Shown: piece by piece, positions 13,595-44,203 of the stretch
How positions within the stretch are numbered: the first letter of the stretch is position 1
Layout: each line of letters opens with the position of its first letter
Position numbers and translations under genes: made by a program
The notes under the pieces: model-generated
Told to the model about the DNA's origin: nothing
The model's input: only the letters and a program-made list of their open reading frames with translations
Databases searched by the model: none
Virus record (IMG/VR): IMGVR_UViG_3300032332_000934
Span: 1-64,000 of that record
From: a virus
Lineage: Duplodnaviria; Caudoviricetes
Strand: one strand, 5' to 3'
DNA: 64,000 bases

Positions 13595-14278
13595 TTAGAA
13601 TTCCCCCGCTTTTTCTTTTTGTAATTCTTTATTTCTTAGTTGACTATAAATTTTATAATCAATACTATTATACCTTTTAATTTCTTCTTTTTCATCTTCT
13701 GTTAATGAATTGTAAAGAGTATTTGAATCACCATTAGAATATTTATATTTGTCGACATTTCCTACTTCTATATACTTTAGATCTAGATCATCAGCCAAAG
13801 TGTGAGCTATTTGTTGAATGTTATATCTAAGCAAATCTTGGCTGACTAATAGATCTATTCTATCAATTCGCTCTTGTAGTAAATTTTCATCTATTAACAT
13901 TATATCTTTATTAAAATGTTCACCTTTAGCGTAATTAAAATTTTGTCCAGAAAACAATAGATTTTGAGATTGAAAATTATGAAGCTGTTTTGTATTTCTA
14001 TAGTAATCTAGAAATTGTGACTTTACATCAGTCCCGTTTTTTTCTTTATTTATAAAGTGTAAGTAGAATCCACAGGAATGTTTTACTGGATCTCTTAATA
14101 TGCAAATGATATAGGTTTTATTATCAATAAAATCAGACCATTCATTGTGTTTGCCTACAATTTCTAAATTTTTATTTAGCAATGGGTTTAAGACATATTC
14201 TTTTAGCGCTCTTCCACCAGTTCCAGCTATATGTAGAAAGTAAATGTTTCTATTTTCATCAACCATTCCTTCATCCAC
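13595..14278 (-). CDS. Sulfotransferase family protein
   Basis: YFLHIAGTGG (PAPS loop), ILRDPV, NFQS and NSIDYKIY motifs. Confidence 0.8.
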   Translation of the reverse strand: MDEGMVDENRNIYFLHIAGTGGRALKEYVLNPLLNKNLEIVGKHNEWSDFIDNKTYIICILRDPVKHSCGFYLHFINKEKNGTDVKSQFLDYYRNTKQLHNFQSQNLLFSGQNFNYAKGEHFNKDIMLIDENLLQERIDRIDLLVSQDLLRYNIQQIAHTLADDLDLKYIEVGNVDKYKYSNGDSNTLYNSLTEDEKEEIKRYNSIDYKIYSQLRNKELQKEKAGEF

Positions 14279-14861
14279 TATATACCTTCTTTCTGTTTGT
14301 TTTTAATGATTTATCTGGGGATATTAGATTTTAGGAAAGCCCCCCTACCCCCCAAATTTTTTCTTTTTGGAAAGATAGAGAAAGCAGTTCCTGGAACACA
14401 TATTCACAGATATTATCTGGTACATATTGAGTTTCAGGGTAAGCCCCCCACAAAGCAAACTAAGTGTAGCATTTAAAATTTATCGAAGTCAAGACATTGT
14501 GCTAATTTTTTTTACATGTGTTTCGCAAAGGTTGTATTTTATACCCTTGTTGTTGATCATACTTGTATATGCGTATTTATCGCAAAATGAACATGTCATA
14601 GCTCTATTGTACCACCGCTTTATATTTCAGTCGACTGCTTTTTAGGATTTAAGAAAATGTTAATATATTTTTTACATGTATGATACACACCATGGACAAA
14701 ACGGACATTTTGGATAGTGCGCCCATAATTCTTTGAGCCTTGAGCGTGAGTGTGAGCCTTATCACAAAGATTTATTTGCAACACGCCCGAGATGTGCCTC
14801 AATTTGTCAGTCCCCCATGCTATGCTTAAGGTATAACAAACAAACGAAAGGTACTCATCTA

Positions 14862-15035
14862 ATGAATACACTAAATAGAATAAAGGCAGAGCAAGACCTT
14901 GCTCGCCACATAGCGCATGAAAAGGCTATGGCTAAGGCTCCTCACATCAGAGAGAGCGTTCAGGCGTATCGTAACGCCACCCCTGAGCAACTGGCTCAGG
15001 TAGAGGCACTACGCAAGCGAGTGTATGGCTTCTAA
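14862..15035 (+). CDS. Early hypothetical protein
   Basis: Promoter and AACGAAAGG RBS; ATG at 14862. Confidence 0.7.
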   Translation: MNTLNRIKAEQDLARHIAHEKAMAKAPHIRESVQAYRNATPEQLAQVEALRKRVYGF

Positions 15036-15138
15036 GGTGTGACACAACTCACACCCCACAGGGTGCGTGTCGGCTTGATAATGTCAGCCCAATAGGCTAC
15101 AATTCCATTATAACCAACTAACGAAAGAAGAACAGTAA

Positions 15139-15288
15139 ATGACAATCACATACACAATCTGGGACGGCTCACAATTCCTCGGATTTCAAACCGCTAATAG
15201 CGTAGATGAGATGACTAAGACAGTTAAAGATTTACAAAAGATTTCTAAAAATGTAATAGCACACTTGCGAAAGGTAGAAACTAACTAA
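15139..15288 (+). CDS. Early hypothetical protein (49 aa)
   Basis: Manual translation MTITYTIWDGSQFLG...; TAATG-coupled to the next ORF. Confidence 0.65.
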   Translation: MTITYTIWDGSQFLGFQTANSVDEMTKTVKDLQKISKNVIAHLRKVETN

Positions 15289-15401
15289 TGACACTAGATG
15301 AATACAAACAAATGGTGGAGGCGCAACGCCTCGCCTCTCTAGCCATAGCACTAGAGGCACTTACTAAATCAGAGACTATTGCTAAGGAGATGAATAAGTA
15401 A
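15288..15401 (+). CDS. Early hypothetical protein (37 aa)
   Basis: TAATG-coupled on both sides. Confidence 0.55.
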   Translation: MTLDEYKQMVEAQRLASLAIALEALTKSETIAKEMNK

Positions 15402-15583
15402 TGTCATACGCATACTCATACGAGAATAACAGCGTATCTAAATGGGATACTATCCAAGAAGATGTCGCAGACGCATACACATACCTTGATGAGGTAGATG
15501 AGGAACAACCTCCACTAGATGAGTTTAATGATGAAGATACAGACGAACTAGCAAAACTATACGCACTATCATGGGAAAACTAA
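15401..15583 (+). CDS. Highly acidic small protein (possible DNA mimic or host-factor inhibitor)
   Basis: D/E-rich 60-aa protein; AAGGAG RBS. Confidence 0.6.
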   Translation: MSYAYSYENNSVSKWDTIQEDVADAYTYLDEVDEEQPPLDEFNDEDTDELAKLYALSWEN

Positions 15584-15908
15584 TGAATAGACTACTAACT
15601 ACCCTAGTACAGATAGCCCTTCTAGTACCCGCCCTATACATGGGGCGCATGATGTGGCGTGAGATCGTAGCGGATTACCAAGAGTGGGCTAAATCACACT
15701 AGCCTAACGGCGTGTCGACTTGACATTGTCAAGCTGGCCCGCAAAAGAGCGGGGTTATCCACAGGCTTACGGGCATCTGTGGAAAACCCCTAGATTTATG
15801 TGAGATTTATCACATGACCTGAGCGTCTCACATTTTGGAATTACTCGCTAGTAAGTAGCCAAATGTCAGCCCCTTAGTGTACAATTCCTACTATAACGAA
15901 AAAGAAAG

Positions 15909-16094
15909 GTGGTCACCATGACTACACTAAACACACTATGCAAGGCGCATGAGCCTCTTGTTTCCGCTATCTCCGAAATTGGAGATGAACAATTTACCCT
16001 ATGCATGATTTGCGATAGCAACATTGAGCGTTATTACTACGATAGCGACCCTGAGCAATTCCCTACATGGACAGATTGGTATGTGACTAAATGA
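15909..16094 (+). CDS. Early hypothetical protein (C/H Zn-binding-like)
   Basis: ORF track, promoter and RBS. Confidence 0.65.
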   Translation: MVTMTTLNTLCKAHEPLVSAISEIGDEQFTLCMICDSNIERYYYDSDPEQFPTWTDWYVTK

Positions 16095-16255
16095 GCACTT
16101 TTGTTCCGATTAAATCCGTATGTGGTGCGGTATCTACCACAATCGACATGTATGACTATGAATTAAACCCTCATGGTGTTATTTGTTGCGATAATTGCGA
16201 AAGCATTTTGTTATGCCGTAAGGCGTGGGATTTTCTATACAAGGGAGTTAAGTAA

Positions 16256-16453
16256 ATGGAAAAAACACAATTCGAAAAAGATTTAGAAATAAAAGAAAGT
16301 TTTATAGATTTACTTAATGATGTTTATCCTGATGTAAAGATTGGGTATTCAACTTTTACCGCCGCCGAGATTTTAGAATGTTGCGACCCAATCGCTTTTT
16401 CAATCGGTTTAATTGAACATGAAGATTATTTAGCAGAAATGGAAAATGAATAA
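16256..16453 (+). CDS. Early hypothetical protein
   Basis: ORF track; GGGAG RBS. Confidence 0.7.
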   Translation: MEKTQFEKDLEIKESFIDLLNDVYPDVKIGYSTFTAAEILECCDPIAFSIGLIEHEDYLAEMENE

Positions 16454-16779
16454 TGGATTTTTTTGGATTTGAAAAAGCAATTGAAATTGATCATCTTACC
16501 GATGAGCAAATCTTAAAGCTTGAAGAAATTTTTAAAGATTTCGAATAAGCAACGGTGTGTCGGCTTGACAAAAGCTGATGCGCCCGCAAAAGAGCGGGGT
16601 TATCCACAGGCTTACGGGACTTATCCACAACCCCTGGAATTTTCCGACACGCCCGAGATTTTGTGATTTTTATCACACGGCTTGAGCGTCTCAAAATGTG
16701 GAATTACTTGCCAGTAATGTGAAAATGTCAGTGCGTTAGGCTATAATTGCTACTATCAACAAACGAAAGGTGACAACTA

Positions 16780-16980
16780 ATGTCAGCAAATGTCTATTCC
16801 GTAGAAAACCTACTTGTAGGAAAAATCTATCACTCTCGCTCAGTAAATGGCGAAATTATTTCAGCCGAAAAAAATAATGATGTCTGGTATGCAAATGCAG
16901 ACACTTACAAGGTAGAAATTTCTCCACTTAATTTTGGAAAAAATACTTATCGCTATTTAGCAGTTAAGACAGGTGACTAA
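16780..16980 (+). CDS. Early hypothetical protein
   Basis: Promoter and AACGAAAGGTG RBS. Confidence 0.7.
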   Translation: MSANVYSVENLLVGKIYHSRSVNGEIISAEKNNDVWYANADTYKVEISPLNFGKNTYRYLAVKTGD

Positions 16981-17290
16981 ATGATTAAAGATTATTTAGA
17001 TGAAACCGAATTCTATTTTATTAAAGATGAACAACATTTTTGTTGTGATGAAAGCCAATTTGTTTATGTGTGCAAGACACACGGCGAACAAATGGATTGC
17101 TATTATTGCGGATTTAACTATGATGAGAATTGCGAGGAACAACACTAATGATTAACTCAGTATTAACAATAGAGTGCCAAGATTGCTTAGGTCACGGAGT
17201 AATTTTTTTTGGTAATGATAATGATTTCGATTGCGAACCTTGCGATTGTGTAAATGACGGCTCACTATTTTGGAACGGAGAAAATAACTA

Positions 17291-17497
17291 ATGTATAAAC
17301 TAACTTGCGCTTATGACGGCAACGCACCACATTGGACAGTGGAATACGAAAACGAATACGGGGCTTGGGAAAACTTTTTCCTATTCACCGATTGGGGATT
17401 TGCTGACGAATACTCAACAGTTAATCTTTATACACCAGCAGGCAAATGCCATACAAAAGTTTTTTATCGTGCAGGACGAAAGGTCGTAATTAAATAA
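17291..17497 (+). CDS. Hypothetical protein with TDWGFA motif
   Basis: Homologous to the middle part of 42875..43387. Confidence 0.75.
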   Translation: MYKLTCAYDGNAPHWTVEYENEYGAWENFFLFTDWGFADEYSTVNLYTPAGKCHTKVFYRAGRKVVIK

Positions 17498-17660
17498 TGG
17501 AACACTACGAATTCAATGCTTTCATAACTGTTGAGGCAGAGTCTTATGATGAAGCCATAGATGTATTTCAGTTTCAGTTAAAGTACGGAATAAATAAAGA
17601 CAATGTTTATGTCGCAGACATAAATCAACTAACTAATAACGAAAGTGTGGAAGTATAAAA

Positions 17661-17852
17661 ATGATGACTCGTAAAGATTATGTTGCTGTTGCAGAAATTC
17701 TAAATTTCGCAAGCGATAAAATTCACCCAGCACTATTTTCTAAAATGGTAAATGATTTTGCAGTTATGTTCGCAAAAGATAATGACCGATTTGATGTAAA
17801 TCGTTTTCATGAAGCGAGTGGCTATCATGTCACAAAACTCACTTCGAGATAA
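17661..17852 (+). CDS. Hypothetical protein with DNxRFDxxRF motif
   Basis: Homologous to the C-terminus of 42875..43387. Confidence 0.75.
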   Translation: MMTRKDYVAVAEILNFASDKIHPALFSKMVNDFAVMFAKDNDRFDVNRFHEASGYHVTKLTSR

Positions 17853-18135
17853 AGTAAAACGAATTCAGGAATTGCGCCGCAGTAATGCGGCGCAACCTGT
17901 TCGTAATAAAAAGAAATATTTTAGAAAGATCAAACACAAAAATAAAAATGCAGAGTAGTGCATAGCTATGCAGCCCGCAATACTGCGGGGTTATCCACAG
18001 GCTTACGTGGGTTATCCACAACCCCCTGGATTTTGTGATTAATCTCACAAAAGCTGCGACACGCCGTAAATGGATTAGGTAATGTCAGTGGGATAGGCTA
18101 TAATACTCTTATACCAACAACGAAAGGCAATAAAA

Positions 18136-18339
18136 ATGATAGTAGAACATAATCTAAAATTCGTTACAGAGTTTAAGGACGGCCACCCAGTTACTCAGCA
18201 AGTGCAAATGCTTGATGAAGGCACTCGTGTATTTATGCTAGAGTCAATGCTAAAAGATTTAGTCGGTAGCCGACTACAACCTATCCTTGATGAAATAAAT
18301 GCAGGTGGGTCTTACGCAATTCTTAAGGTGGCAGAATAA
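18136..18339 (+). CDS. Early hypothetical protein
   Basis: Promoter and RBS. Confidence 0.7.
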   Translation: MIVEHNLKFVTEFKDGHPVTQQVQMLDEGTRVFMLESMLKDLVGSRLQPILDEINAGGSYAILKVAE

Positions 18340-18605
18340 TGGGATACAATACAGCGTTAGATTTATCTAATGAATTAGATTTAGAGGTAGCACTAGGTTA
18401 TCACTTACAAGGTAATCATTACCCACCCGTTCCGCTTTCTATGGTACAACCTTGTATTGAGGCTATTGACGCTTACTATGATGAGGATTATAATAAGTTG
18501 ATCGAAATGCCTGAAGGCGTATCTTATAAAGGTGACTCTCATGCGCCAGCGTGGGCTATTATCGAACAGCACCACTTAGACGCTTGGCTACCTGAAAGTG
18601 ACTAA
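18339..18605 (+). CDS. Conserved phage hypothetical protein (HLQGNHYPPVP)
   Basis: ORF track; coupled start. Confidence 0.7.
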   Translation: MGYNTALDLSNELDLEVALGYHLQGNHYPPVPLSMVQPCIEAIDAYYDEDYNKLIEMPEGVSYKGDSHAPAWAIIEQHHLDAWLPESD

Positions 18606-18701
18606 GGTCACACAATAACATTCTCAAATAGTGAGATAGGGCTAGACTAATGTCAGACCCCAATGCTATACTACAACCCTAACAAAGAAAAGAGGCAACA
18701 A

Positions 18702-18884
18702 ATGACAGTAAATGGATACACTTACAAGGTTGGCGATTTATTCACCACCCTAAAGTCAAAAAAGACAGGTGTGATTAAGGAAATCCACCCACAAACATCT
18801 GGCTCGGTGCGTGTGCTACTAGAAATGCCAACGAAAGAAACTCGTTGGACTTCGGTATCTGCTCAAACCTTACTAGGCGTATAA
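18702..18884 (+). CDS. Small SH3/KOW-like beta protein
   Basis: YKVGD...TGVIKEI...VRVLL...RWT pattern; AGAGG RBS. Confidence 0.55.
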   Translation: MTVNGYTYKVGDLFTTLKSKKTGVIKEIHPQTSGSVRVLLEMPTKETRWTSVSAQTLLGV

Positions 18885-18970
18885 TCTAAAAACAGGGGGG
18901 TCGCAGAAATGTCAGACCCTCCTGCTATAATTATTTAATCAAACCAACAAACAACGAAAGAAGGAAACAA

Positions 18971-19393
18971 ATGGCTAGAGGAAAAGCAATCTCAGTTAAA
19001 ATCGCAACACCAAAGGTAATCAAGGCACTAGAAACTGCACTAGCAAAGTTAGAAGCAGATTACACTTCACAAGAAGCAAACGAAGCAAAGTATGAAAAGT
19101 TACGCAAGGCTTGGCAAAAAGAGGTTAGCGATTTCGCAGTTGCTAACATCAAGAAGGCTGAGAACTTCCGCACTAACTATCGTTCTTGGAACAACACACT
19201 CAACATTGACTACGATTTGACAGTATCCGAAAAGGAAATGCCAAAAGAGCCTGAGAAGGACTTTGTAACAATGCACCGCCACTCATACTTAGAGCAGAAG
19301 CAGGAAATCGAAAATGCAATCCGTATTCTGAAAATGACAGATGAGGAAACAGTAAATACTTCAACCTACAATGCGGTTGCACAGTATCTCTAA
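18971..19393 (+). CDS. Early coiled-coil hypothetical protein
   Basis: Strong promoter and RBS. Confidence 0.8.
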   Translation: MARGKAISVKIATPKVIKALETALAKLEADYTSQEANEAKYEKLRKAWQKEVSDFAVANIKKAENFRTNYRSWNNTLNIDYDLTVSEKEMPKEPEKDFVTMHRHSYLEQKQEIENAIRILKMTDEETVNTSTYNAVAQYL

Positions 19394-19427
19394 ATAAAAT
19401 CGTTCTCGCATAACGATAAATTGCGAA

Positions 19428-19454
19428 CAACCTGAGTAAGTTGCTAAACTGCTC
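19428..19454 (+). ncRNA. Putative H-type pseudoknot element, copy 1
   Basis: CAAC-CTGAGTAA-GTTG-CTAAAC-TGCTC; covaries with copy 2. Confidence 0.55.
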
Positions 19455-19489
19455 TCCCTTCGGGGACAACTACTAACAAAGGTAACAAA

Positions 19490-19744
19490 ATGAAAAATCG
19501 TTTCAGAGTAGAAATCTATGATGCAAACAAGAGTAATGATTTAACAATCTATTCAGAGCAAGGTGTTGATAAGGAATACTTAACTGAATTAGCATTCTCT
19601 AATAGAGGAAATTTCTTGGGTGATGTACGTGCTTATGTCTATGATACATTGAAGAAGACTAAGACTACCGCTCTTTATCTTCCCGCCGAGGTTATTAACT
19701 TTAACCGTAAGAATCAATTGACTAGGGATGAGTTGGGTCTATAG
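19490..19744 (+). CDS. Early hypothetical protein
   Basis: ORF track; AAAGG RBS. Confidence 0.7.
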   Translation: MKNRFRVEIYDANKSNDLTIYSEQGVDKEYLTELAFSNRGNFLGDVRAYVYDTLKKTKTTALYLPAEVINFNRKNQLTRDELGL

Positions 19745-19942
19745 AGATCTAACACTGGCTGCAGATATGCAGCTGGCCCGTATATCTGAGGGGTTATCCA
19801 CAGGGTTACGACTGCCTGTGGATATCCCTGGATTTTTGTGATAATGATCACATCTCATAATTCGGACATATTGTGTTTAATCCTAGACAATGTCAGTGGC
19901 AGATGTTATACTTATGACTAATCAAACGAAAGGTAAAAAAAT

Positions 19943-20950
19943 ATGGCTCACAATCTCGAAATGGAAAACGGCGAAGTTGCTTTCGCTCTCCGTGGCGCAC
20001 CTGCATGGCACAACCTTGCAAATCGCATCTTTACACAAGATGAAGATGTTACAACTCAAATGATGTTAGATGAGGCAAAACTTTCCAACTGGAATGTTCG
20101 TCTGTCTCCACTGACTGACCACATCTCAGATACATGGAACGATGTATCTAACGCATCTCTTGTCATTCGTGACAACCCATTCAACAAGGGCACTGATGTT
20201 CTTGCAACTGTTGGAAAGCGTTACAAGCCAGTGCAGAATGAAGAATTATTCGCATTCGCAGATGCAATTCATGATGCAAACGCAGATTGCCGTTGGGAAT
20301 CTGCTGGCTCATTGCGTAGTGGTAAGGTTGTATTCGGTACAGTGGATATTCCTCGCACAATGGTTCTTGACCCACAAGGCGCTAACGATGAAACTAAACT
20401 CTATTTAATTGTATGGACATCACACGATGGCTCAGTAGCGGTTCAAGCAGCCGTTACACCTGTTCGTGTTGTATGCCAAAACACATTGAACCTTGCAATG
20501 CGTAACGCTAAGCAATCATTCAAGATTCGTCACACGCAATCTGTTGAAGGTCGAATTCAAGTTGCTCGTGAAACTCTTGGGCTTGCTCTTGGGTACTTTG
20601 ATGAATTCGAGAAAGAAGCGCAAGCGCTTTATTCTCAGTCAATTACTGATGCTGAATTCTCTAAGTTGATTCAGACAATTTATCCTAAGCCTGCTGACGA
20701 TGCAGCAAAAGTTGCGCTAACAAAGTGGGAGAACAAAGTCGTTCTGCTTGATTCTTTGTATCATAACTCACCAACTAACGCTAATATCAAGGGAACAAAG
20801 TGGGGTGCATTTAATGCACTAACTGAGCGCCTAGATTATTATCGTTCAGGGCGTGGAAATTCTGAAACACTTATGGCTGGTGCATCAGGGTTCGACCCAA
20901 TTCTAACTGCTGAGAAAAACAAAATCAAGAAATTGGTTTCTGCTTTCTAA
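19943..20950 (+). CDS. DUF932 family (phage/plasmid LGT-type) protein
   Basis: MAHNLE...AWH.L, YKPVQNEE.F, SHDGS and TPVRVVCQNTL motifs. Confidence 0.85.
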   Translation: MAHNLEMENGEVAFALRGAPAWHNLANRIFTQDEDVTTQMMLDEAKLSNWNVRLSPLTDHISDTWNDVSNASLVIRDNPFNKGTDVLATVGKRYKPVQNEELFAFADAIHDANADCRWESAGSLRSGKVVFGTVDIPRTMVLDPQGANDETKLYLIVWTSHDGSVAVQAAVTPVRVVCQNTLNLAMRNAKQSFKIRHTQSVEGRIQVARETLGLALGYFDEFEKEAQALYSQSITDAEFSKLIQTIYPKPADDAAKVALTKWENKVVLLDSLYHNSPTNANIKGTKWGAFNALTERLDYYRSGRGNSETLMAGASGFDPILTAEKNKIKKLVSAF

Positions 20951-20957
20951 ATAAATA

Positions 20958-20984
20958 ATTCCTGAGCATGAATAAAAACTGCTC
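20958..20984 (+). ncRNA. Putative H-type pseudoknot element, copy 2
   Basis: ATTC-CTGAGCAT-GAAT-AAAAAC-TGCTC; spacing identical to copy 1. Confidence 0.55.
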
Positions 20985-20996
20985 ACATTTTTTCTT

Positions 20997-21070
20997 GGTC
21001 CATTAGCTCAGTTGGTTAGAGCGCTACCCTGTCACGGTAGAGGTCGACAGTTCAAGTCTGTTATGGATCG
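20997..21070 (+). tRNA. tRNA-Asp(GUC)
   Basis: Acceptor GGTCCAT/ATGGATC-G; anticodon arm CTACC-CTGTCAC-GGTAG. Confidence 0.9.
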
Positions 21071-21174
21071 CTAAGTGCCCTCAATGCTAAGGGGGCAAAA
21101 AATGTGTTACGACTCACATAAAATTTCCCTGGAATCTATTGATAATGTCAGTGGGTTCGTGTATAATTCTCTTC

Positions 21175-21837
21175 ATGACCAACGAACTAGTATCAAGTAA
21201 GTATACCTTTGTCTGTGACCCAGACGAATGCGATTGTCTGATAGAACTAACATCATCTGATGGATTTGGCTTTCCTTCAGGTGTGACAGAACTCACATGC
21301 CCGTGTGGCCGAAAGACCACATTAGTGTCAGTGGAGCATGCTACAATTACACCAACAACAACGAAAGAGGAAAAAATGGAAGAAACAACTGTAGGAACTA
21401 TTAACGACCTGCTTACACCTTACAACCCTGATATGTTAGTAACATACAAAAAGATTAGTGGTTATTCTGATACAGAATTCCTTACTGATAAGGTTCGCAA
21501 CATTGAATGGGAACTCCACAACGCTAGAACTAATTCTAAAGCGGTATCTGCAATTCAGAATAAGATTAGTTTAGTTAAGGATATTATTACTGAGGCATAT
21601 GCTGATTCAGATGACCAAGATACATTGCGCGAGATTGCCGAAGCACTTGAGATTGAACTTACACGTGAAGTTGAATGGTCTGCAACAATTGAGGTTAGCG
21701 GAACATTAACAATTGATTTGCTTGAAAGCACAGTTGATGATGTCGAACAAGAAATCTACGACAATCTTTATGTTGATTCACAAAACGGTCAGATTGAAAT
21801 TGTTGACACCGAAGTATGTAATGTGCGTGAGAACTAA
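21175..21837 (+). CDS. Hypothetical protein with Cys-rich N-terminal extension; nested in-frame start at 21376
   Basis: Leaderless ATG 7 nt after the -10 hexamer; a second promoter and RBS lie inside the ORF. Confidence 0.7.
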   Translation: MTNELVSSKYTFVCDPDECDCLIELTSSDGFGFPSGVTELTCPCGRKTTLVSVEHATITPTTTKEEKMEETTVGTINDLLTPYNPDMLVTYKKISGYSDTEFLTDKVRNIEWELHNARTNSKAVSAIQNKISLVKDIITEAYADSDDQDTLREIAEALEIELTREVEWSATIEVSGTLTIDLLESTVDDVEQEIYDNLYVDSQNGQIEIVDTEVCNVREN

Positions 21838-22040
21838 TGTACTTTGAACTTACCGCTCCTGATATGCTCTCTATGCAGAGAGCGTATTGGGATGCAGAGA
21901 TAACGGGACTTGACCCACAAGCAATGTCTGCGTTGACATTCAACATCGGAACTGGTAGTATTGAGAAAGTAAGTAGGCTTAGAGATAAGTACAACTTAAC
22001 TGAATCTTATGTATCAGACCACGAAACCACAGGTTATTAA
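21837..22040 (+). CDS. Hypothetical protein
   Basis: TAATG coupling. Confidence 0.65.
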   Translation: MYFELTAPDMLSMQRAYWDAEITGLDPQAMSALTFNIGTGSIEKVSRLRDKYNLTESYVSDHETTGY

Positions 22041-22192
22041 GGAGAGATTATGTCAGAGTATAAAGATGGTTGGGCAGATGGTTACAAGTTTGCTCGTGAT
22101 GAAATCATGGAAAAGTTATCAGAGATTGATATTAATGATATTGATTCTTGGATTCTTGACCGTCTATCTGAGATGATCGAAGGTGGCAAACT

Positions 22193-22384
22193 GTGATGGC
22201 TGAATGGCTTAAGTGTGACCAGTGTGCAGCTCAGGCTATGTGGGAAGCAAAAAAAGATAACGCATCTCTTTTCTTTTGCGGTCACCATAAAAATAAACAG
22301 GGCGAGTCTCTTGTGGACTGGGCCCATGAAATGGTACAATTACTCAAGTACGAAGAAAATCAACTACTAACGAAAGCAGAATAA
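22193..22384 (+). CDS. Zn-finger-like protein (CDQC...FCGHH)
   Basis: Actinobacterial/actinophage-type CDxC..FCxHH motif. Confidence 0.65.
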   Translation: MMAEWLKCDQCAAQAMWEAKKDNASLFFCGHHKNKQGESLVDWAHEMVQLLKYEENQLLTKAE

Positions 22385-22385
22385 A

Positions 22386-22751
22386 ATGGGCGATAGAGCA
22401 AACTTTGGATTCAGAGATTCCAAGGAGAACGTAGTATTTCTATATGGGCACTGGGCTGGACATAACATGCTAGCCAAGTTGGCCAATGCTGTGCAGGCTG
22501 CAGAGCCACGCTGGCAGGATGAATCATATGCAACACGCATTGCTATATCTAATCTAATTGGAGAAGACTGGACTCAGACAACAGGCTGGGGAATTTATGT
22601 TAACCAATTAGGGGACAACGAACACAAGGTACCTGTAATTGACTGGACCAACGAAACGTTTACATTGTACGAAGAGGACCTGAGCACGGTAGTGTTTACA
22701 TCATCCTTGGCGTCATTTGTGGACAAATACAGTCGACTAGTTATGGTATAA
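22386..22751 (+). CDS. Conserved actinophage hypothetical protein (MGDRAN...LYGHWAG)
   Basis: ORF track and RBS. Confidence 0.75.
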   Translation: MGDRANFGFRDSKENVVFLYGHWAGHNMLAKLANAVQAAEPRWQDESYATRIAISNLIGEDWTQTTGWGIYVNQLGDNEHKVPVIDWTNETFTLYEEDLSTVVFTSSLASFVDKYSRLVMV

Positions 22752-22876
22752 TTAGACCTAGGACATTAATCCTGGTTTTAATATAGAAATGAAATGGTGC
22801 GTCTATTTAGTCTTTATGGCCAGGCGCTAAGTAAAGCGGTTTATTTCTTTCGTTGGAAATCAGCAGCCATATTCAT

Positions 22877-22908
22877 ACCCCCCAGCTTTTAGCTGGGGGT
22901 TTCTTTTT
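22877..22908 (+). terminator. Intrinsic terminator
   Basis: CCCCCAGC-tttta-GCTGGGGG followed by TTTCTTTTT. Confidence 0.8.
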
Positions 22909-23084
22909 GCCCGCAAAGACTTGAGGGTAGCATATTGTCTTTACGACTGTCAAATACATTTCCCAGGATTTGGTGTGATGTTGATCACATTCCACATAAA
23001 ATGTGGCGGGGATCACAAAGCTTTTCTATTCCATTTGTCAGTGGTCCATTGTATAATTGGAACATATCAACGAAAGGATATAAA

Positions 23085-23822
23085 ATGCCAAATTGGGTAT
23101 ATAACGGATTAACTATTGAAGGTAATCCTGAGCAAGTAAAATCTCTAATCAAGCAGATGAATAAGCCATTTGTTTATTCTATTACTGCAGTAGGTGATTT
23201 GTCATATGATGTTAAGCAGACTAAGTATGTTAATCCTATCTTTGCTTTTCATAATATCTATAACTATAGAGATGCTGGTATTACTGATGAGGTATATCAT
23301 GGACAACCTCCTCGTTCCACCGACCAAGATTGGTTTAAGTTTGATACCAATGACTGGTATAACTTTAATGTCCGTGAGTGGGGCACCAAATGGGATGTAG
23401 CCGTAGCCGAGGATAATAAGTATCCTGATACAACTATTGAGGAAGCAGAAAATGGCGAGAACTATGTAGTTCACTATAACTTTAATACTGCTTGGTCTCG
23501 TCCAATGAATGCTTTAATTAAACTATCATCTCAATATCCAACATTACTATTTACTTTATCATATGAAGAAGAAACAGGCTGGGGTGGGGAATGTGAATTC
23601 CTTCGTGGAGAAGTTATCTCAGAATCAGAATACGAGAACCAATGCCGTGACTGTGATGCCACAGATTGCATGGAGTATTGTGAGGAAGAAGACTGTGGAG
23701 AAATTTGTAATGTATGCCATTGGCTAGGAGAGGCTGACCTAGAGGCTGTGGCTAAATGTCAGACCCATAAGATATACTTAGACACTAAAGTACCCGAATA
23801 TAGAAAGGTGGGAACCAAATGA
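23085..23822 (+). CDS. DUF1281/YubB-like ferredoxin-fold protein with Cys-rich tail
   Basis: MPNWVYNGLTI, WYNFNVREWGTKWD and FNTAWS.P motifs; start corrected to ATG at 23085. Confidence 0.8.
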   Translation: MPNWVYNGLTIEGNPEQVKSLIKQMNKPFVYSITAVGDLSYDVKQTKYVNPIFAFHNIYNYRDAGITDEVYHGQPPRSTDQDWFKFDTNDWYNFNVREWGTKWDVAVAEDNKYPDTTIEEAENGENYVVHYNFNTAWSRPMNALIKLSSQYPTLLFTLSYEEETGWGGECEFLRGEVISESEYENQCRDCDATDCMEYCEEEDCGEICNVCHWLGEADLEAVAKCQTHKIYLDTKVPEYRKVGTK

Positions 23823-24049
23823 GTTTTCTAGAGAATGAAAACCAAATGGTAATAGACGCAACATATCAAGAGATTGGAGAAATGCTAGTCGAAGACTGGG
23901 TTAACTCCAATTTAGATGAAGGCCAACTGTTTGCAGATTATAGATTTGCAGAAATGGCAGATAACAATTACTTAAAGGGTAGATTTAATCAGTTTTATGA
24001 TTTGAAACCAGGTGACCAGTATTATCTAGAATGGGATGAGGAGAAGTAA
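23819..24049 (+). CDS. Acidic hypothetical protein
   Basis: ATGA overlap. Confidence 0.65.
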   Translation: MSFLENENQMVIDATYQEIGEMLVEDWVNSNLDEGQLFADYRFAEMADNNYLKGRFNQFYDLKPGDQYYLEWDEEK

Positions 24050-24211
24050 TGTTAGGTTATGACTTAGAGGATTTAAATATAATGATCGATTCATTAGAAG
24101 AAGTTATTCAGATTGAAGAATCTTCTCAGACCCCTTCAATTTCTGATAGAAATCTAGGCGGACTTAAAACAAGTTTATCGTTCTTACAAGGACTATGGGC
24201 AGAGGGCTATT

Positions 24212-24430
24212 TTGACTAAGTCATCAGCATTCCTAGAATATATGAAGATACATCTAATTAGTCTTAACCAGGACTTAGAGGAATGTATGTATATATGGAG
24301 AACAGATAGAGATAATCATGATAGTTCTAAGATAGATTATTTAAATGGACAAATTGTTGCAACCAGGCATTTATTGTCAGTGGCTACTGATATAATGAAT
24401 AACTCTAACGAAAGGTATAACAATGAATAA
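24212..24430 (+). CDS. Hypothetical protein
   Basis: ORF track; its 3' end contains a TGTCAG promoter. Confidence 0.55.
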   Translation: MTKSSAFLEYMKIHLISLNQDLEECMYIWRTDRDNHDSSKIDYLNGQIVATRHLLSVATDIMNNSNERYNNE

Positions 24431-24695
24431 TGAAGACATTGGGCTCCCGCCCCATTTGCAACGTTTGGTTAATGCAGGTGTTAGTGGATTAGATATAATG
24501 CACGGTGAACTAAAGAATCTAATGCTAATTGCCGAGCAGGAACTAGCAGACGCAATCGAACGGGAAGAAGAATCAGAAGAAGCAATGGACTCTATGGTCC
24601 GTACAGAATGCGAAGGTGCACTAGACACCTTGGTAGCCCTATATGAACTAACATACCAACTCTCATTTGCGATTGGAGCACGTGGTGAAGCCTGA
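24423..24695 (+). CDS. Hypothetical protein
   Basis: Promoter and AACGAAAGG RBS. Confidence 0.7.
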   Translation: MNNEDIGLPPHLQRLVNAGVSGLDIMHGELKNLMLIAEQELADAIEREEESEEAMDSMVRTECEGALDTLVALYELTYQLSFAIGARGEA

Positions 24696-24999
24696 AGATA
24701 AAGATAAACTAAACAAGTGTTTAGAAATTCTAGATGACACAGACTTAGGTCTATCATTAGTTTGGCTATGGACATGGTCGACAATTAATAATATACTAGA
24801 GGATGAGACCTATAAGGCTAACGCTAGCAAAGACGACATGTGGAATCACCTGTGTGAGGCTGTAGAGGCTGGAATGGGCTTCTCCCTAGAATACGGTGCA
24901 GACCAACATCATGAAGACGTACAAGACTGGATGTTAAGCAGAGACTACATTGTAGACACAATGTTTGAAGAAGAGGAGGACGAAGATGAAGATGAGTGA
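24667..24999 (+). CDS. Acidic-tailed hypothetical protein
   Basis: ORF track; true start probably a GTG near 24685. Confidence 0.65.
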   Translation: MRLEHVVKPEDKDKLNKCLEILDDTDLGLSLVWLWTWSTINNILEDETYKANASKDDMWNHLCEAVEAGMGFSLEYGADQHHEDVQDWMLSRDYIVDTMFEEEEDEDEDE

Positions 25000-25125
25000 C
25001 AAGTATCTAAACGATCAACTTAGTACAGCCCAAAAGCTTTTGTGGGGTGGGTCCGAAACAGAAAACATCGAGGCACATAACATCATTGCTAAACTAATTC
25101 AAGATAAGGTAGAACAGGTGGAACT

Positions 25126-25311
25126 ATGAGAAAAGACTATAAGATTTACGGTGACCGTATGCAGGAGTTTTACGTAACCGTTAGCGCAGAGTCACACGAC
25201 CTTGCGTGGGAAGCAGCCAAGCAAATCCCTGCAGAGGGTTGGACTGAAATCCCAACTGATGACATGATTGACCCATACAACGCAGTAGAAGTAGAACTTA
25301 CAATTAAATAA
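25126..25311 (+). CDS. Hypothetical protein (VxAESxxxA family)
   Basis: ORF track; resembles small ORFs starting near 17497 and at 45050. Confidence 0.6.
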   Translation: MRKDYKIYGDRMQEFYVTVSAESHDLAWEAAKQIPAEGWTEIPTDDMIDPYNAVEVELTIK

Positions 25312-25460
25312 AGATAGGTTGAGCCGTTATGGACAATTCGGACATAACGGTCTTCAATCTAAGGGCACGGGCAAAAATATTGCTTTACGTACCCTATTTA
25401 CAAATCCCCGAAATTCGGATATAATATATATAACAACTCGATCTAGAAAGGATCAAACAA

Positions 25461-25613
25461 ATGACATCAACACCAACAACAACTCGTGAATATCTAAAGG
25501 CCCAGGGAATTTCTGTGGGCAAGCGTGGCCGCTTCTCAGCTGCAGCTCTAGGAGCTATCAGCAAGGCAGCACAATCAGGCGTGGTCTTCTCAGACACAAA
25601 GAACGTCAAGTAA
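25461..25613 (+). CDS. Stand-alone Lsr2-like DNA-binding domain protein (50 aa)
   Basis: Missed by the ORF track. MTSTPTTTREYLKAQGISVGKRGRFSAAALGAI matches the Lsr2 C-terminal RExxxxxGxxVxxRGR AT-hook pattern; GAAAGGA RBS; downstream hairpin. Confidence 0.75.
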   Translation: MTSTPTTTREYLKAQGISVGKRGRFSAAALGAISKAAQSGVVFSDTKNVK

Positions 25614-25623
25614 TAACTAACTG

Positions 25624-25655
25624 TGGGGACCTTCCTCTTCGGAGGCAGGTCCCCC
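25624..25655 (+). terminator. Hairpin with TTCG tetraloop
   Basis: GGGGACCTtCCTC-TTCG-GAGGcAGGTCCCC. Confidence 0.65.
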
Positions 25656-25712
25656 TTCATTTACAAATGTCAGTGCCCAATGGTATAATCAAAACGAAAG
25701 AGGTGGAACTTA

Positions 25713-26057
25713 ATGGCTAAAGCGAACGAATTCAAAGCAGCAGAAAAATTAACAGACTATCTAAATAATGCTAACTTCTCACCTGCCGTAATGGCAAATG
25801 TATTAACAACTGAACATACCTTATACACCCAAGACAGGCTAATGGAACTAGTTAGATATATCATTCAATACAATTCCCTTAGATTAAAGTCAGAATGGGA
25901 TAAAGGATACACATCCGAAGGATTGCTTTTAGCAGATGCGCTCAATGACATCCTCGAAGCAAAATACGGGGCGGTAGATAGAAACCTAACAATAGACTCC
26001 TTGAAAGAAACAAGAGTAAGAGATAGTAAATATATAATGGACTTAGATTCATTCTAA
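25713..26057 (+). CDS. Hypothetical protein, last ORF of the + strand island
   Basis: Promoter and RBS. Confidence 0.75.
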   Translation: MAKANEFKAAEKLTDYLNNANFSPAVMANVLTTEHTLYTQDRLMELVRYIIQYNSLRLKSEWDKGYTSEGLLLADALNDILEAKYGAVDRNLTIDSLKETRVRDSKYIMDLDSF

Positions 26058-26465
26058 GATAACTTCCCCTATGGGGCATATGGCTTTAATTAGCTGTATG
26101 TCCCATTTTTGTATGCCCATCTTATGGGCCAAATTTCTTCTTTACGATCACATATAAAAAACCCTGGAAAATGTATAATAAATCTAATATAATCTGTCAA
26201 AATGTGCATAGAATATCTCATTATATGAGACAAATAATGCAGAATCTGACAGAATTTTTTGCCATATATATGGGCCAAAATTGCTCTTTACGAACAAATA
26301 AAAAAATTTCCTGGAATTTTATATGAAAGCTATTGACAAATATTGGCCAATATGCTTTATATGGGGCCTGTTGACATTACGTCCCATCATATGATATGCT
26401 CAATTACATAGCTATATTCAGATAGTTATAATGATAGTATTTGGATCTAAATTGATAGTATGATT

Positions 26466-26491
26466 CTCCACAATACTCCACTTTACTCCAC
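26466..26491 (-). promoter_or_regulatory. MraZ-box-like triple direct repeat, GTGGAG-N4
   Basis: CTCCAC at 26466, 26476 and 26486 (10-bp period). Confidence 0.55.
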
Positions 26492-26902
26492 TATATAAAG
26501 CCCTACAAGGGCTATTATAGAGGAGATAAATGGGAGGGGGATATAGGAGTTAGGAGCTAATTTATTGCAATTTGCTCTTATTCTTAGATGGTCTTCTAGA
26601 CCAATCTGGAGCTTTATTTGCATTAGTTCCTCTAGATGTAGACTCTATTAGGGCTTTATTCTTATCTAATGCTTCTTGGGCATATTGAAGCTGTTGATCC
26701 CAATTGAACTTCCGTTTTTTTGCCATATCTATATTATACTATATTAGTATAATTCTAGTCAACCATTATCTTACTGAGCATTCCAGACACACAAATGGGT
26801 CATCATTAGCCTTATAAAATAGGATCTTACATTCGCTACATGCTACCTTATATGGCTCATAGCCCTTGACATACTTTTCATAGGATGATTGAAACTTATT
26901 CA

Positions 26903-27169
26903 TTAAATGCAAGCCAAACAGTAATACGGAGCACGAAGGTTATCCCGATGGGTATATATAGTCTGAGAGCATTTATGACATTTTGCATGAACCATAGGGC
27001 CTTCTTCTTTAATTGGTATTTGTACAGTAAATGTCTTTGTGTAATATACCTTAGCTAAGTACCATGTAATAGCTATTAGTAGTAGTTCTATCATCAGTTC
27101 CCGCCTTTCAACAATTGTGAGTACATCCACAATCTGGACACTCTTCACCTCCAGCAGCATTACAGTCAT
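26903..27169 (-). CDS. Membrane-anchored Zn-ribbon protein
   Basis: Likely start MIELLLI; CHKC...CLAC. Confidence 0.55.
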   Translation of the reverse strand: MTVMLLEVKSVQIVDVLTIVERRELMIELLLIAITWYLAKVYYTKTFTVQIPIKEEGPMVHAKCHKCSQTIYTHRDNLRAPYYCLACI

Positions 27170-43387: not shown

Positions 43388-43685
43388 ATGGTTTTCCTTC
43401 TAACTCGACTCTAACTCCGTAAGATTCAAGAAGCTTCTTTGCCCTTGAAACATAATCAATAACTTTTTCTTTTTCAATTCCATCAAATTGTATAAAGTTA
43501 TCTTCATACAATCTTAATGCTAAAAACTCTGGGTACTGAACAACATCCATAAGTAGGAACATTGGCTTATTCAGCTCTCTTAGTTTATTTTTCATCTCTA
43601 AGTTATAAAAAACTGGTTTGTTTGGCTCACCAGTCCACTGATTCATTCCATATTTAAAATGCTTGTCATCATAAACATTAGACAT
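43380..43685 (-). CDS. Hypothetical protein
   Basis: ORF track, start trimmed. Confidence 0.65.
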   Translation of the reverse strand: MSNVYDDKHFKYGMNQWTGEPNKPVFYNLEMKNKLRELNKPMFLLMDVVQYPEFLALRLYEDNFIQFDGIEKEKVIDYVSRAKKLLESYGVRVELEGKPYG

Positions 43686-43989
43686 TTTGTTTTGCTCTAA
43701 TCTGTTTCCATATGTCTTTTGTCTTATGAACATTTTTCATTTTATCAATTAATCCTGAAGATAAATATACTCCGCCCCAAACACCATATTCATTATTTTC
43801 AATCCCAGATTGGTGGCATATCTTCATAACTGGGCAAGACAGGCAGCATTGATCTATAGCCTTGGCCATATTTATATCAGATTCATATTTGTCAAAAAAT
43901 AGATTGGTGTCCATTCCGCTACATGCAGCAAGGTGCCACCATCTAATTGACTGTTCATCTGAATCTAATTCATTTAAAATATTTGACAT
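43678..43989 (-). CDS. whiB: WhiB-family Fe-S transcription factor
   Basis: W..AAC.G.D...FF...C.SCPV...C......E.GVWGG. Confidence 0.9.
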   Translation of the reverse strand: MSNILNELDSDEQSIRWWHLAACSGMDTNLFFDKYESDINMAKAIDQCCLSCPVMKICHQSGIENNEYGVWGGVYLSSGLIDKMKNVHKTKDIWKQIRAKQNV

Positions 43990-44203
43990 ACTTTGTTGGC
44001 AATACCCAAACTCCATCTTTATTAACAGCAAATTTGCTACTAATGCCCCAATTATTTTTTCTATATTCTCCGTTTACATTAAAAAACCCAGAAGAATTTT
44101 TTTTCCATAGGATAACGTCATAGTTATTCCATCTAATCTCTAAACTATTTGAATTTGCTCTTTTCTTTAAAAGCTCAACACCTGATTCATAAAGACATAT
44201 CAC
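43970..44203 (-). CDS. Hypothetical protein
   Basis: ORF track. Confidence 0.6.
   Translation of the reverse strand: MICLYESGVELLKKRANSNSLEIRWNNYDVILWKKNSSGFFNVNGEYRKNNWGISSKFAVNKDGVWVLPTKYVKYFK

Follow-up and report, generated by a model that had tools for sequence, protein, structure and literature searches.

A three-box element in a block of small genes

The window analysed here is the first 64 kb (64,000 nucleotides) of a complete virus record of 114,966 bp with direct terminal repeats (IMGVR_UViG_3300032332_000934; Duplodnaviria, Caudoviricetes), which has a GC content of ~36% and carries six tRNA genes. Its sole long plus-strand block, between 14.3 and 26.5 kb, consists of ~40 small genes without assigned function, is flanked on both sides by minus-strand genes and is probably expressed early. 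Nine copies of an element made up of three boxes, each copy hereafter called a module, occur in the 115-kb genome, all on the plus strand and all restricted to this block. The element is real and conserved across hundreds of related phage fragments, and it matches no promoter, operator or RNA family description with which we compared it.

From 5′ to 3′, the element consists of GGG, a gap of 13 nt, TTAHG (box 2), a second gap of 16 or 17 nt, and CCTGRA followed by AwTT (box 3); a further box, GCCCGCAAA, is frequently found 14 nt 5′ of GGG. A first-pass annotation of the window had described TTACG at nine positions, with CCTGGA or a close variant 21-22 bp further on and with GGG 16 bp ahead of it (14 bp in one copy). 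We recovered all nine sites, and the distance to GGG also holds, the deviating copy being a GGGGG run at 21107. Box 3 is longer than first seen, extending over 10 bp (CCTGGAATTT); its first six nucleotides are CCTGGA in six of the modules and CCAGGA, CCTAGA and CCCGAA in one each, at 21 or 22 bp from TTACG (start to start). The pattern TTACG-N15-18-CCWGGA has seven matches in the window, all on the plus strand, against 0.06 expected from shuffled sequences, and likewise seven forward and no reverse matches in the whole 114,966-bp genome. With two mismatches allowed, GGG is present at positions −16 to −14 of TTACG at exactly nine sites, i.e., those recognised at first. Each of the nine modules is situated 3′ of the last gene of a mini-operon (or of tRNA-Asp) and 5′ of the next operon, in the same orientation as the genes. 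They are as follows.

15737-15798, plus strand: module 1, with a GCCCGC box, GGG at 15751-15753, TTACG at 15767 flanked on either side by DnaA boxes (the second one inverted), a 17-nt gap and box 3 CCTAGA at 15789
16582-16642, plus strand: module 2, with TTACG at 16612, a 16-nt gap, box 3 at 16633 and direct DnaA boxes at 16600 and 16621
17973-18034, plus strand: module 3, with TTACG at 18003, a 17-nt gap, box 3 at 18025 and direct DnaA boxes at 17991 and 18012
19776-19836, plus strand: module 4, upstream of a gene for a 335-aa protein, with TTACG at 19806, box 3 at 19827, and a DnaA box at 19794 plus an inverted copy, together forming a 15-bp inverted repeat around TTACG
21077-21137, plus strand: module 5, directly 3′ of tRNA-Asp, with TTACG at 21107 overlapped by a CRP-like site (one mismatch), box 3 at 21128 and a PafBC-type box beginning 18 nt past box 3
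22911-22972, plus strand: module 6, preceded by a separate canonical terminator (22879-22899), with TTACG at 22941 and box 3 CCAGGA at 22963
25355-25416, plus strand: module 7, with TTACG at 25385, box 3 CCCGAA at 25407 (the weakest) and an inner canonical promoter, TTTACA-N17-TATAAT (25397-25425), shifted by 13 bp
26112-26172, plus strand: module 8, in the non-coding tail of the block, with TTACG at 26142, box 3 at 26163 and TATAAT immediately after it
26258-26319, plus strand: module 9, in the same tail, with TTACG at 26288, box 3 at 26310 and, further on, TTGACA-type promoters at 26337 and 26371

Conservation of the element in related phages

Relatives were collected with the 335-aa gene, which yielded 269 related viral contigs, 80 loci of which were kept (92-98% protein identity and 65-90% DNA identity). 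These relatives are contigs from lake metagenomes. They contain 541 further copies of the element, 328 of them unique. Exact copies are in forward orientation in 282 cases and in reverse in three; copies with one mismatch occur 256 times forward and four times in reverse. Given GGG-N13-TTAHG, box 3 (at most two mismatches) follows in 292 of 317 unique forward copies and in none of 13 reverse ones. Bases outside the search pattern are conserved too: the three bases of GGG at −16 to −14 are found in 99, 100 and 95% of copies, the individual bases of GCCCGCAAA at −30 to −22 in 47-86%, and ATTT after CCTGGA in 80-86%. When 50 distinct sequences from upstream of the 335-aa gene are aligned, a footprint appears in which T-T-A-n-G, with a variable n column, and box 3 are among the conserved blocks.

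The spacing, whose lack of conservation in homologous regions had been named at the outset among the refuting observations, is indeed kept: the first gap is always 13 nt long, while boxes 2 and 3 are separated by 16 nt in 41% and by 17 nt in 59% of the unique copies, the extra base lying in a C-run. The distance between the two main boxes is sigma-like. Gap lengths persist while the sequence within the gaps is swapped among at least five unrelated fillers, namely DnaA boxes (direct or inverted), a CRP-like site in the gap, a CRP-like site overlapping TTACG, a GACAC-containing box and A/T-rich tracts. In four modules, DnaA boxes flank TTACG, as direct copies in those at 16612 and 18003 and in inverted arrangement in those at 15767 and 19806. 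The idea that the skeleton is separate from these DnaA boxes and that its spacers vary freely in sequence is borne out: the boxes of the element stay where the gap sequence is replaced. Variants tolerated in box 2 are TTAAG (45 unique copies) and TTATG (12 unique copies), and in box 3 CCTGAA, CCAGGA, GCTGGA, CGTGGA and CCCGAA; ATACG, tried as another variant of box 2, proved to be a false positive inside coding sequence. At the end of the block, relatives carry head-to-tail tandem modules with a 48-bp period, two to four per tail.

We also searched a host-genome sample of 401 Actinomycetia genomes, for which the class was sampled starting from one Aquiluna metagenome-assembled genome (MAG), and found no regulon with the element: matches occur in seven genomes, of which one has two, identical in sequence and on separate contigs. 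The single host match that was read lies inside a long open reading frame (ORF), presumably for a dihydroxy-acid dehydratase, judging by eye from the local translation and not from a search; a second genome carries a nearly identical sequence. Compared by eye with the sequence logos of the element, neither SigR/SigH-type (plus-strand GGAAT-N18-GTT), sigma54 and sigmaB/F-type layouts, nor those of GlnR, BldD, AdpA, the ARG-box and the DnaA-trio, provided a fit.

The genome encodes a WhiB-family protein (43678-44031, minus strand; Pfam Whib, E 1.5e-13), which is the main clue to an actinobacterial host, along with a class II ribonucleotide reductase, a carbamoyltransferase and many 2OG oxygenases. 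WhiB proteins are restricted to Actinobacteria and their phages (PMC10202952). With this gene and with relatives that come from lake metagenomes, the phage is an uncultured freshwater actinophage. A megablast search of the region against GenBank phages returned no match, and a search for the host via the phage ribonucleotide reductase gene retrieved only phage contigs mis-binned into unrelated MAGs.

Genes for a factor that could read the element were sought as well. The phage has no match to Sigma70_r2, and r4_2 scored only 15.7 bits in a frame of 51 aa. Pfam and PHROG scans of 102 window ORFs produced no recognisable transcription factor among the matches listed (for 65 minus-strand ORFs, the summaries comprise the first 25 families). 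Three minus-strand ORFs match phrog_2297 (“DNA endonuclease”; best E 1.5e-09); members of this family, sought as candidate nickases, were not among the ten ORFs scanned.

Promoters and host-regulator sites beside the modules

The modules stand close to two other kinds of repeated regulatory sequence, i.e., promoters of the type TGTCAG-N10-TAnnnT and palindromes TGTGA-N6-TCACA.

15864, 16726, 18083, 19891, 21146 and 23036 (to 23057), plus strand: PafBC-type promoters TGTCAG-N10-TAnnnT downstream of modules 1-6
15799-15814, 18034-18049, 19837-19852 and 22974-22989: CRP-like palindromes TGTGA-N6-TCACA by modules, beginning 9-11 nt after the start of box 3
16662-16677: CRP-like palindrome beginning 29 nt after the start of box 3 of module 2

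The tandem arrangement of promoters, one of which is PafBC-type, is the host's own design at recA. In the phage, TGTCAG-N10-TAnnnT occurs 14 times in the plus-strand block (14805-25689) and never on its other strand, eight of the 14 being without a module; a single stray match outside the block is found at genome position 68163. As this sequence matches the PafBC consensus, tGTCgg(N10)tA(N3)T (PMC8635444), the small-gene block seems to be wired to the host's single-stranded DNA alarm. Downstream of modules 1-6, the PafBC-type promoter follows 18-93 nt after box 3, and in relatives a recognisable promoter follows 85% of the unique copies. We found no helical phasing between modules and PafBC boxes, the distances ranging from 15 to 100 nt with no consistent phase.

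Perfect TGTGA-N6-TCACA palindromes (CRP/GlxR-like) number eight, all within the block (14751-22989). Five of them adjoin modules, those at 14751 and 15038 precede PafBC-type promoters without a module, and the one at 21282 lies within coding sequence. Counted downstream from the first base of box 3, such a palindrome begins at 8-12 nt (mode 10) in 39% of copies and at no other distance up to 40 nt. Six of the seven perfect TTATCCACA DnaA boxes of the genome are gathered within 4 kb (15755-19824), together with two inverted near-copies; this cluster could also mark a replication origin that recruits DnaA. Altogether, with PafBC-type promoters, CRP-like sites and DnaA boxes, the small-gene block appears to be wired to several global regulators of the host.

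Some further repeated sequences lie in the same surroundings. Close to modules, the box GACACGCC, in many cases lengthened to GACACGCCCGAG, is present in one orientation or the other (15708-15720, 16553-16563, 16644-16656, 18056-18066), and it occupies the first gap in one module family of the relatives; it includes what we take to be a WhiA-type GACAC core. Ahead of the 335-aa gene, the interval from the CRP-like palindrome to the PafBC-type promoter holds a strongly conserved box, AATTCGGACATATTGT (19858-19875 and in relatives). Fourteen start codons of the block (14844-25694, plus strand) come after an extended ribosome-binding motif, ACGAAAG(G), which is scarce elsewhere, with one forward and six reverse occurrences in the whole genome outside the block. 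Upstream of minus-strand operons, near-consensus TTGACA-N17/18-TATAAT promoters are found on the minus strand at 26762, 28646, 31689, 40102, 41310, 52514 and 55521; this promoter type differs from that of the plus-strand block, which suggests two differently controlled gene sets. The non-coding tail (26060-26520) comprises, besides its two modules and the TTGACA-type promoters at 26337 and 26371, a canonical terminator (26071-26106), a stretch of ~100 nt in which CTCCAC motifs recur and, near 26500, a hairpin resembling a terminator; the tail may be a small RNA locus.

What the element may be

The boxes, their spacing, orientation, conservation and contexts are all observed, and it is from these that we infer binding of RNA polymerase, its direction, a start site and roles for host factors. 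Our preferred reading, to which we give a probability of about 0.4, is that the element may be a plus-strand, factor-dependent promoter-type scaffold specific to this phage group. It would be read by the host RNA polymerase together with an adaptor or a sigma-like factor, from either phage or host. GGG would be followed by an A/T-rich or factor-occupied stretch; TTAHG would then lie in the −35 region and, after the gap of 16/17 bp, the 10-bp CCTGGAATTT would cover the −10 region and include a minimal nAnnnT hexamer, with a predicted start ~15-17 nt past the start of box 3. The gaps, as well as the stretch just downstream, would be slots for host DNA-binding proteins (DnaA, CRP/GlxR-like) that block or modulate the polymerase. 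With regulator slots at each boundary, this would thus be a host-state-sensitive promoter, working in tandem with the PafBC-type promoter of the operon.

Several observations argue for such a promoter. The 16 or 17 nt between boxes 2 and 3 resemble the bipartite recognition typical of sigma factors. In about half of the copies box 2 is of a TTTAC type (TTTACG in 43%, with GTTACG in 44%), and in three filler families TTTACG is preceded by an A-tract at the position of an UP element. In module 7 and its family, the canonical TTTACA-N17-TATAAT repeats the same layout 13 bp downstream. Of the 328 unique copies, 94% have the nAnnnT hexamer in box 3, at offset 3-5. DnaA or CRP-like sites are found beside TTAHG and inside the gap, and the palindromes that begin 8-12 nt past the start of box 3 would therefore cover the predicted start site; regulators would, thus, sit at operator positions beside the −35 region, in the spacer and over the start. 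Finally, the position and orientation of the modules relative to the genes, in tandem with an activator-dependent promoter, speak for it as well.

Other observations weigh against this reading. Where sigmaA would require a −10 element (TAnnnT), there is CCTGGA instead, and the nAnnnT hexamer (GAATTT), which has no T at −12, is 19-21 bp away from TTAHG, beyond the normal −35/−10 spacing. Box 2 has 3-4 of six positions in common with TTGACA, but its invariant T-T-A-n-G departs from −35 preferences, and the conservation of all ten bases of box 3 exceeds what a −10 element requires. No module is the sole recognisable promoter before a protein gene, and the tandem copies with a 48-bp period at the block end suit an array of binding sites at least equally well. 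Nor does the phage have a sigma factor or a recognisable transcription factor among the matches listed.

A more specific form of the promoter reading, on which we would not bet but which deserves to be stated, is a new class of adaptor-dependent promoter akin to sigma adaptation or appropriation. One factor would read GGG, TTAHG and CCTGGAATTT, and the two gaps of fixed length would be exchangeable sensor slots, which put each phage operon under the control of a selected regulator of the host (DnaA, CRP/GlxR or others). In a bolder variant, the modules would expose or create single-stranded DNA and trigger PafBC locally.

Two known systems come close to the preferred, promoter-type reading. 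In T4-type phages, early and middle promoters occur in tandem and PeSL elements combine a stem-loop and a promoter at the boundaries of small accessory-gene cassettes, while the MotA box replaces the −35 element. Here, too, a stem-loop and a promoter-type element bound cassettes of small accessory genes, and an activator box that replaces the −35 element (MotA in T4, PafBC-type here) lies just downstream and serves the same genes. In contrast to PeSL elements, the boxes of the phage element are not of the sigma70 type, CCTGGA takes the −10 position, the gaps hold host-factor sites, the hairpin is partial and breakpoints are not enriched at the modules. The initial proposal of a promoter-stem-loop module that shuffles gene cassettes is near our favoured reading as regards the module; shuffling is not supported. 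PafBC-dependent promoters of Actinobacteria (RecA-NDp, “sigma adaptation”; PMC8635444) have their counterparts in the same block and the same operons, and the element is similarly non-canonical, of fixed geometry and associated with an actinobacterial host. An adaptor between sigmaA and an unusual box, as in those promoters, could apply to the element; unlike them, it is without tGTCgg-N10-tAnnnT, extends over ~47-60 bp with three or four boxes and was not found as a regulon in the 401 host genomes.

The strongest competitor, which we consider improbable on balance and still worth serious attention, is that the copies form an array of operators or roadblocks. A DNA-binding protein of the phage or the host would bind all three boxes and bring about orientation-dependent insulation or silencing of the mini-operons, and the module would not be a promoter at all. 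Such an array would account for boxes that agree with no consensus of a sigma factor and are conserved at the level of single bases, all 10 bp of box 3 included, for the strictly fixed distance between GGG and TTAHG, and for asymmetric sites in a single orientation relative to transcription. A PafBC-type or sigmaA-type promoter comes after every gene-proximal module and none of these stands alone, head-to-tail copies gather where the block ends in non-coding sequence, immediately ahead of the convergent genes, and the 401 host genomes are, the matches mentioned above aside, without copies. Stoperators of cluster A mycobacteriophages (e.g., L5) are single asymmetric sites of 13 bp, spread genome-wide, with a known repressor. 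The element resembles them in being a frequent, asymmetric intergenic site of an actinophage in one orientation relative to transcription (282 forward, 3 reverse), and differs in that it is a 47-bp multi-box unit confined to one block, with no repressor or helix-turn-helix protein, or any other candidate DNA-binding protein, among the window ORF matches listed. Furthermore, three unlike boxes over 47 bp with a slack of 1 bp between two of them would be unusual for one protein, and a protein that spans them would clash with the host-factor sites in between. Repression by direct occlusion is unlikely, since the distance from module to downstream promoter varies from 15 to ~100 nt.

That the element works as RNA in the plus-strand transcript, i.e., as a terminator, a processing or stability signal or a nut-like antitermination site formed by the GCCC...GGG hairpin (hairpin 1) and the boxes, seems to us quite improbable. 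Modules do come after the last gene of each operon; hairpin 1 folds more stably on the plus strand than on the minus strand in 127 against 34 unique copies, owing to G-T pairs; and some module families have a strong second hairpin with a T-rich tail. The hairpin described in the first-pass annotation has fared unevenly: CCC...GGG and the 5′ box GCCCGCAAA are conserved, but hairpin 1 ranges from −12 to ~0 kcal/mol, its inner pairing amounting to −10 to −12 kcal/mol in some copies and being negligible in others, and covariation of its pairs in fixed register does not exceed that of shuffles. Its downstream tail is not U-rich in three filler families, and module 6 is already preceded by a canonical terminator of its own. 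The centre, from GGG to CCTGG, has no common RNA fold (median z −0.46; 26% of 91 diverse copies below −2), and an Rfam search of 14000-27000 with E up to 1 matched tRNA-Asp alone. The lack of a common fold and of an Rfam match thus points to recognition as DNA, and the fillers, moreover, are sites for proteins that bind double-stranded DNA. As to transcripts, 13 RNA runs contain small shares of the region as contigs; in the four that were compared, these are fragments of relatives spread over the block. RNA-library contigs extend into modules, as an RNA-level element would have it. In one such contig, 15744 is joined directly to 17987, thus linking modules 1 and 3 with 2,242 bp left out; the contig therefore represents a relative without the two operons in between.

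Antisense firing from the element, the possibility raised at first, is disfavoured. Minus-strand promoters of extracytoplasmic function (ECF) sigma type, with TCCAGG and CGTAA separated by 16/17 nt, would fire into the preceding genes, and their antisense RNA would begin with a CCC...GGG hairpin. The spacing and the CGTAA −10 of the window's nine copies suit ECF architecture, an A-rich stretch lies upstream of the minus-strand −35, and the block could be neatly switched off by a whole series of promoters firing antisense. We nevertheless hold this to be quite unlikely. The CGT core of the minus strand is not conserved, given that the C of TTACG is freely A or T in relatives (the TTAAG and TTATG copies counted above, and the variable column of the footprint), and the −35 reads TCCAGG or TTCAGG without the AAC core of GGAAC-like elements. 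An ECF-like sigma gene elsewhere in the genome was not found, there being no Sigma70_r2 match and only the 15.7-bit r4_2 score, the 401 Actinomycetia genomes have no regulon, and the palindromes and host-factor sites suit plus-strand geometry better.

A strand-specific site for nicking, recombination or cassette shuffling (by an HUH nuclease, as a T5-type nick or PeSL-like as in T4) is very improbable. In its favour, the hairpin-like box keeps a constant distance to TTAC and occurs on a single strand (GGG foot, 13 nt, TTAC), which recalls the geometry of HUH-nuclease sites (IS200/IS605-like); modules 1 and 3 are linked in the contig variant mentioned above; and gene content between modules differs among relatives. 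Against it, homology breakpoints, for which a preference for these sites had been put up for testing at the outset, lie within 45 bp of TTACG in 4.8% of cases (n = 1,397) against 6.7% expected and are spread over all gene junctions, the genome has no Y1/HUH transposase (Y1_Tnp) match, the C of TTAC varies, and box 3 and the host-factor slots would be left unexplained.

The group to which this phage belongs, very abundant uncultured freshwater actinophages of which a single gene retrieved 269 related contigs, carries in its small-gene block a scaffold that is the one part of the regulatory wiring without a known reader. Naming its binder would show how these phages time the small-gene block in streamlined lake actinobacteria, and the scaffold could reveal a new way of redirecting the actinobacterial RNA polymerase or, alternatively, a new polar insulator. 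If the adaptor-dependent reading is true, an abundant lake phage would have evolved promoters of modular architecture. The fixed frame with its exchangeable inserts is an unusually clear natural case of modular cis-regulatory design.

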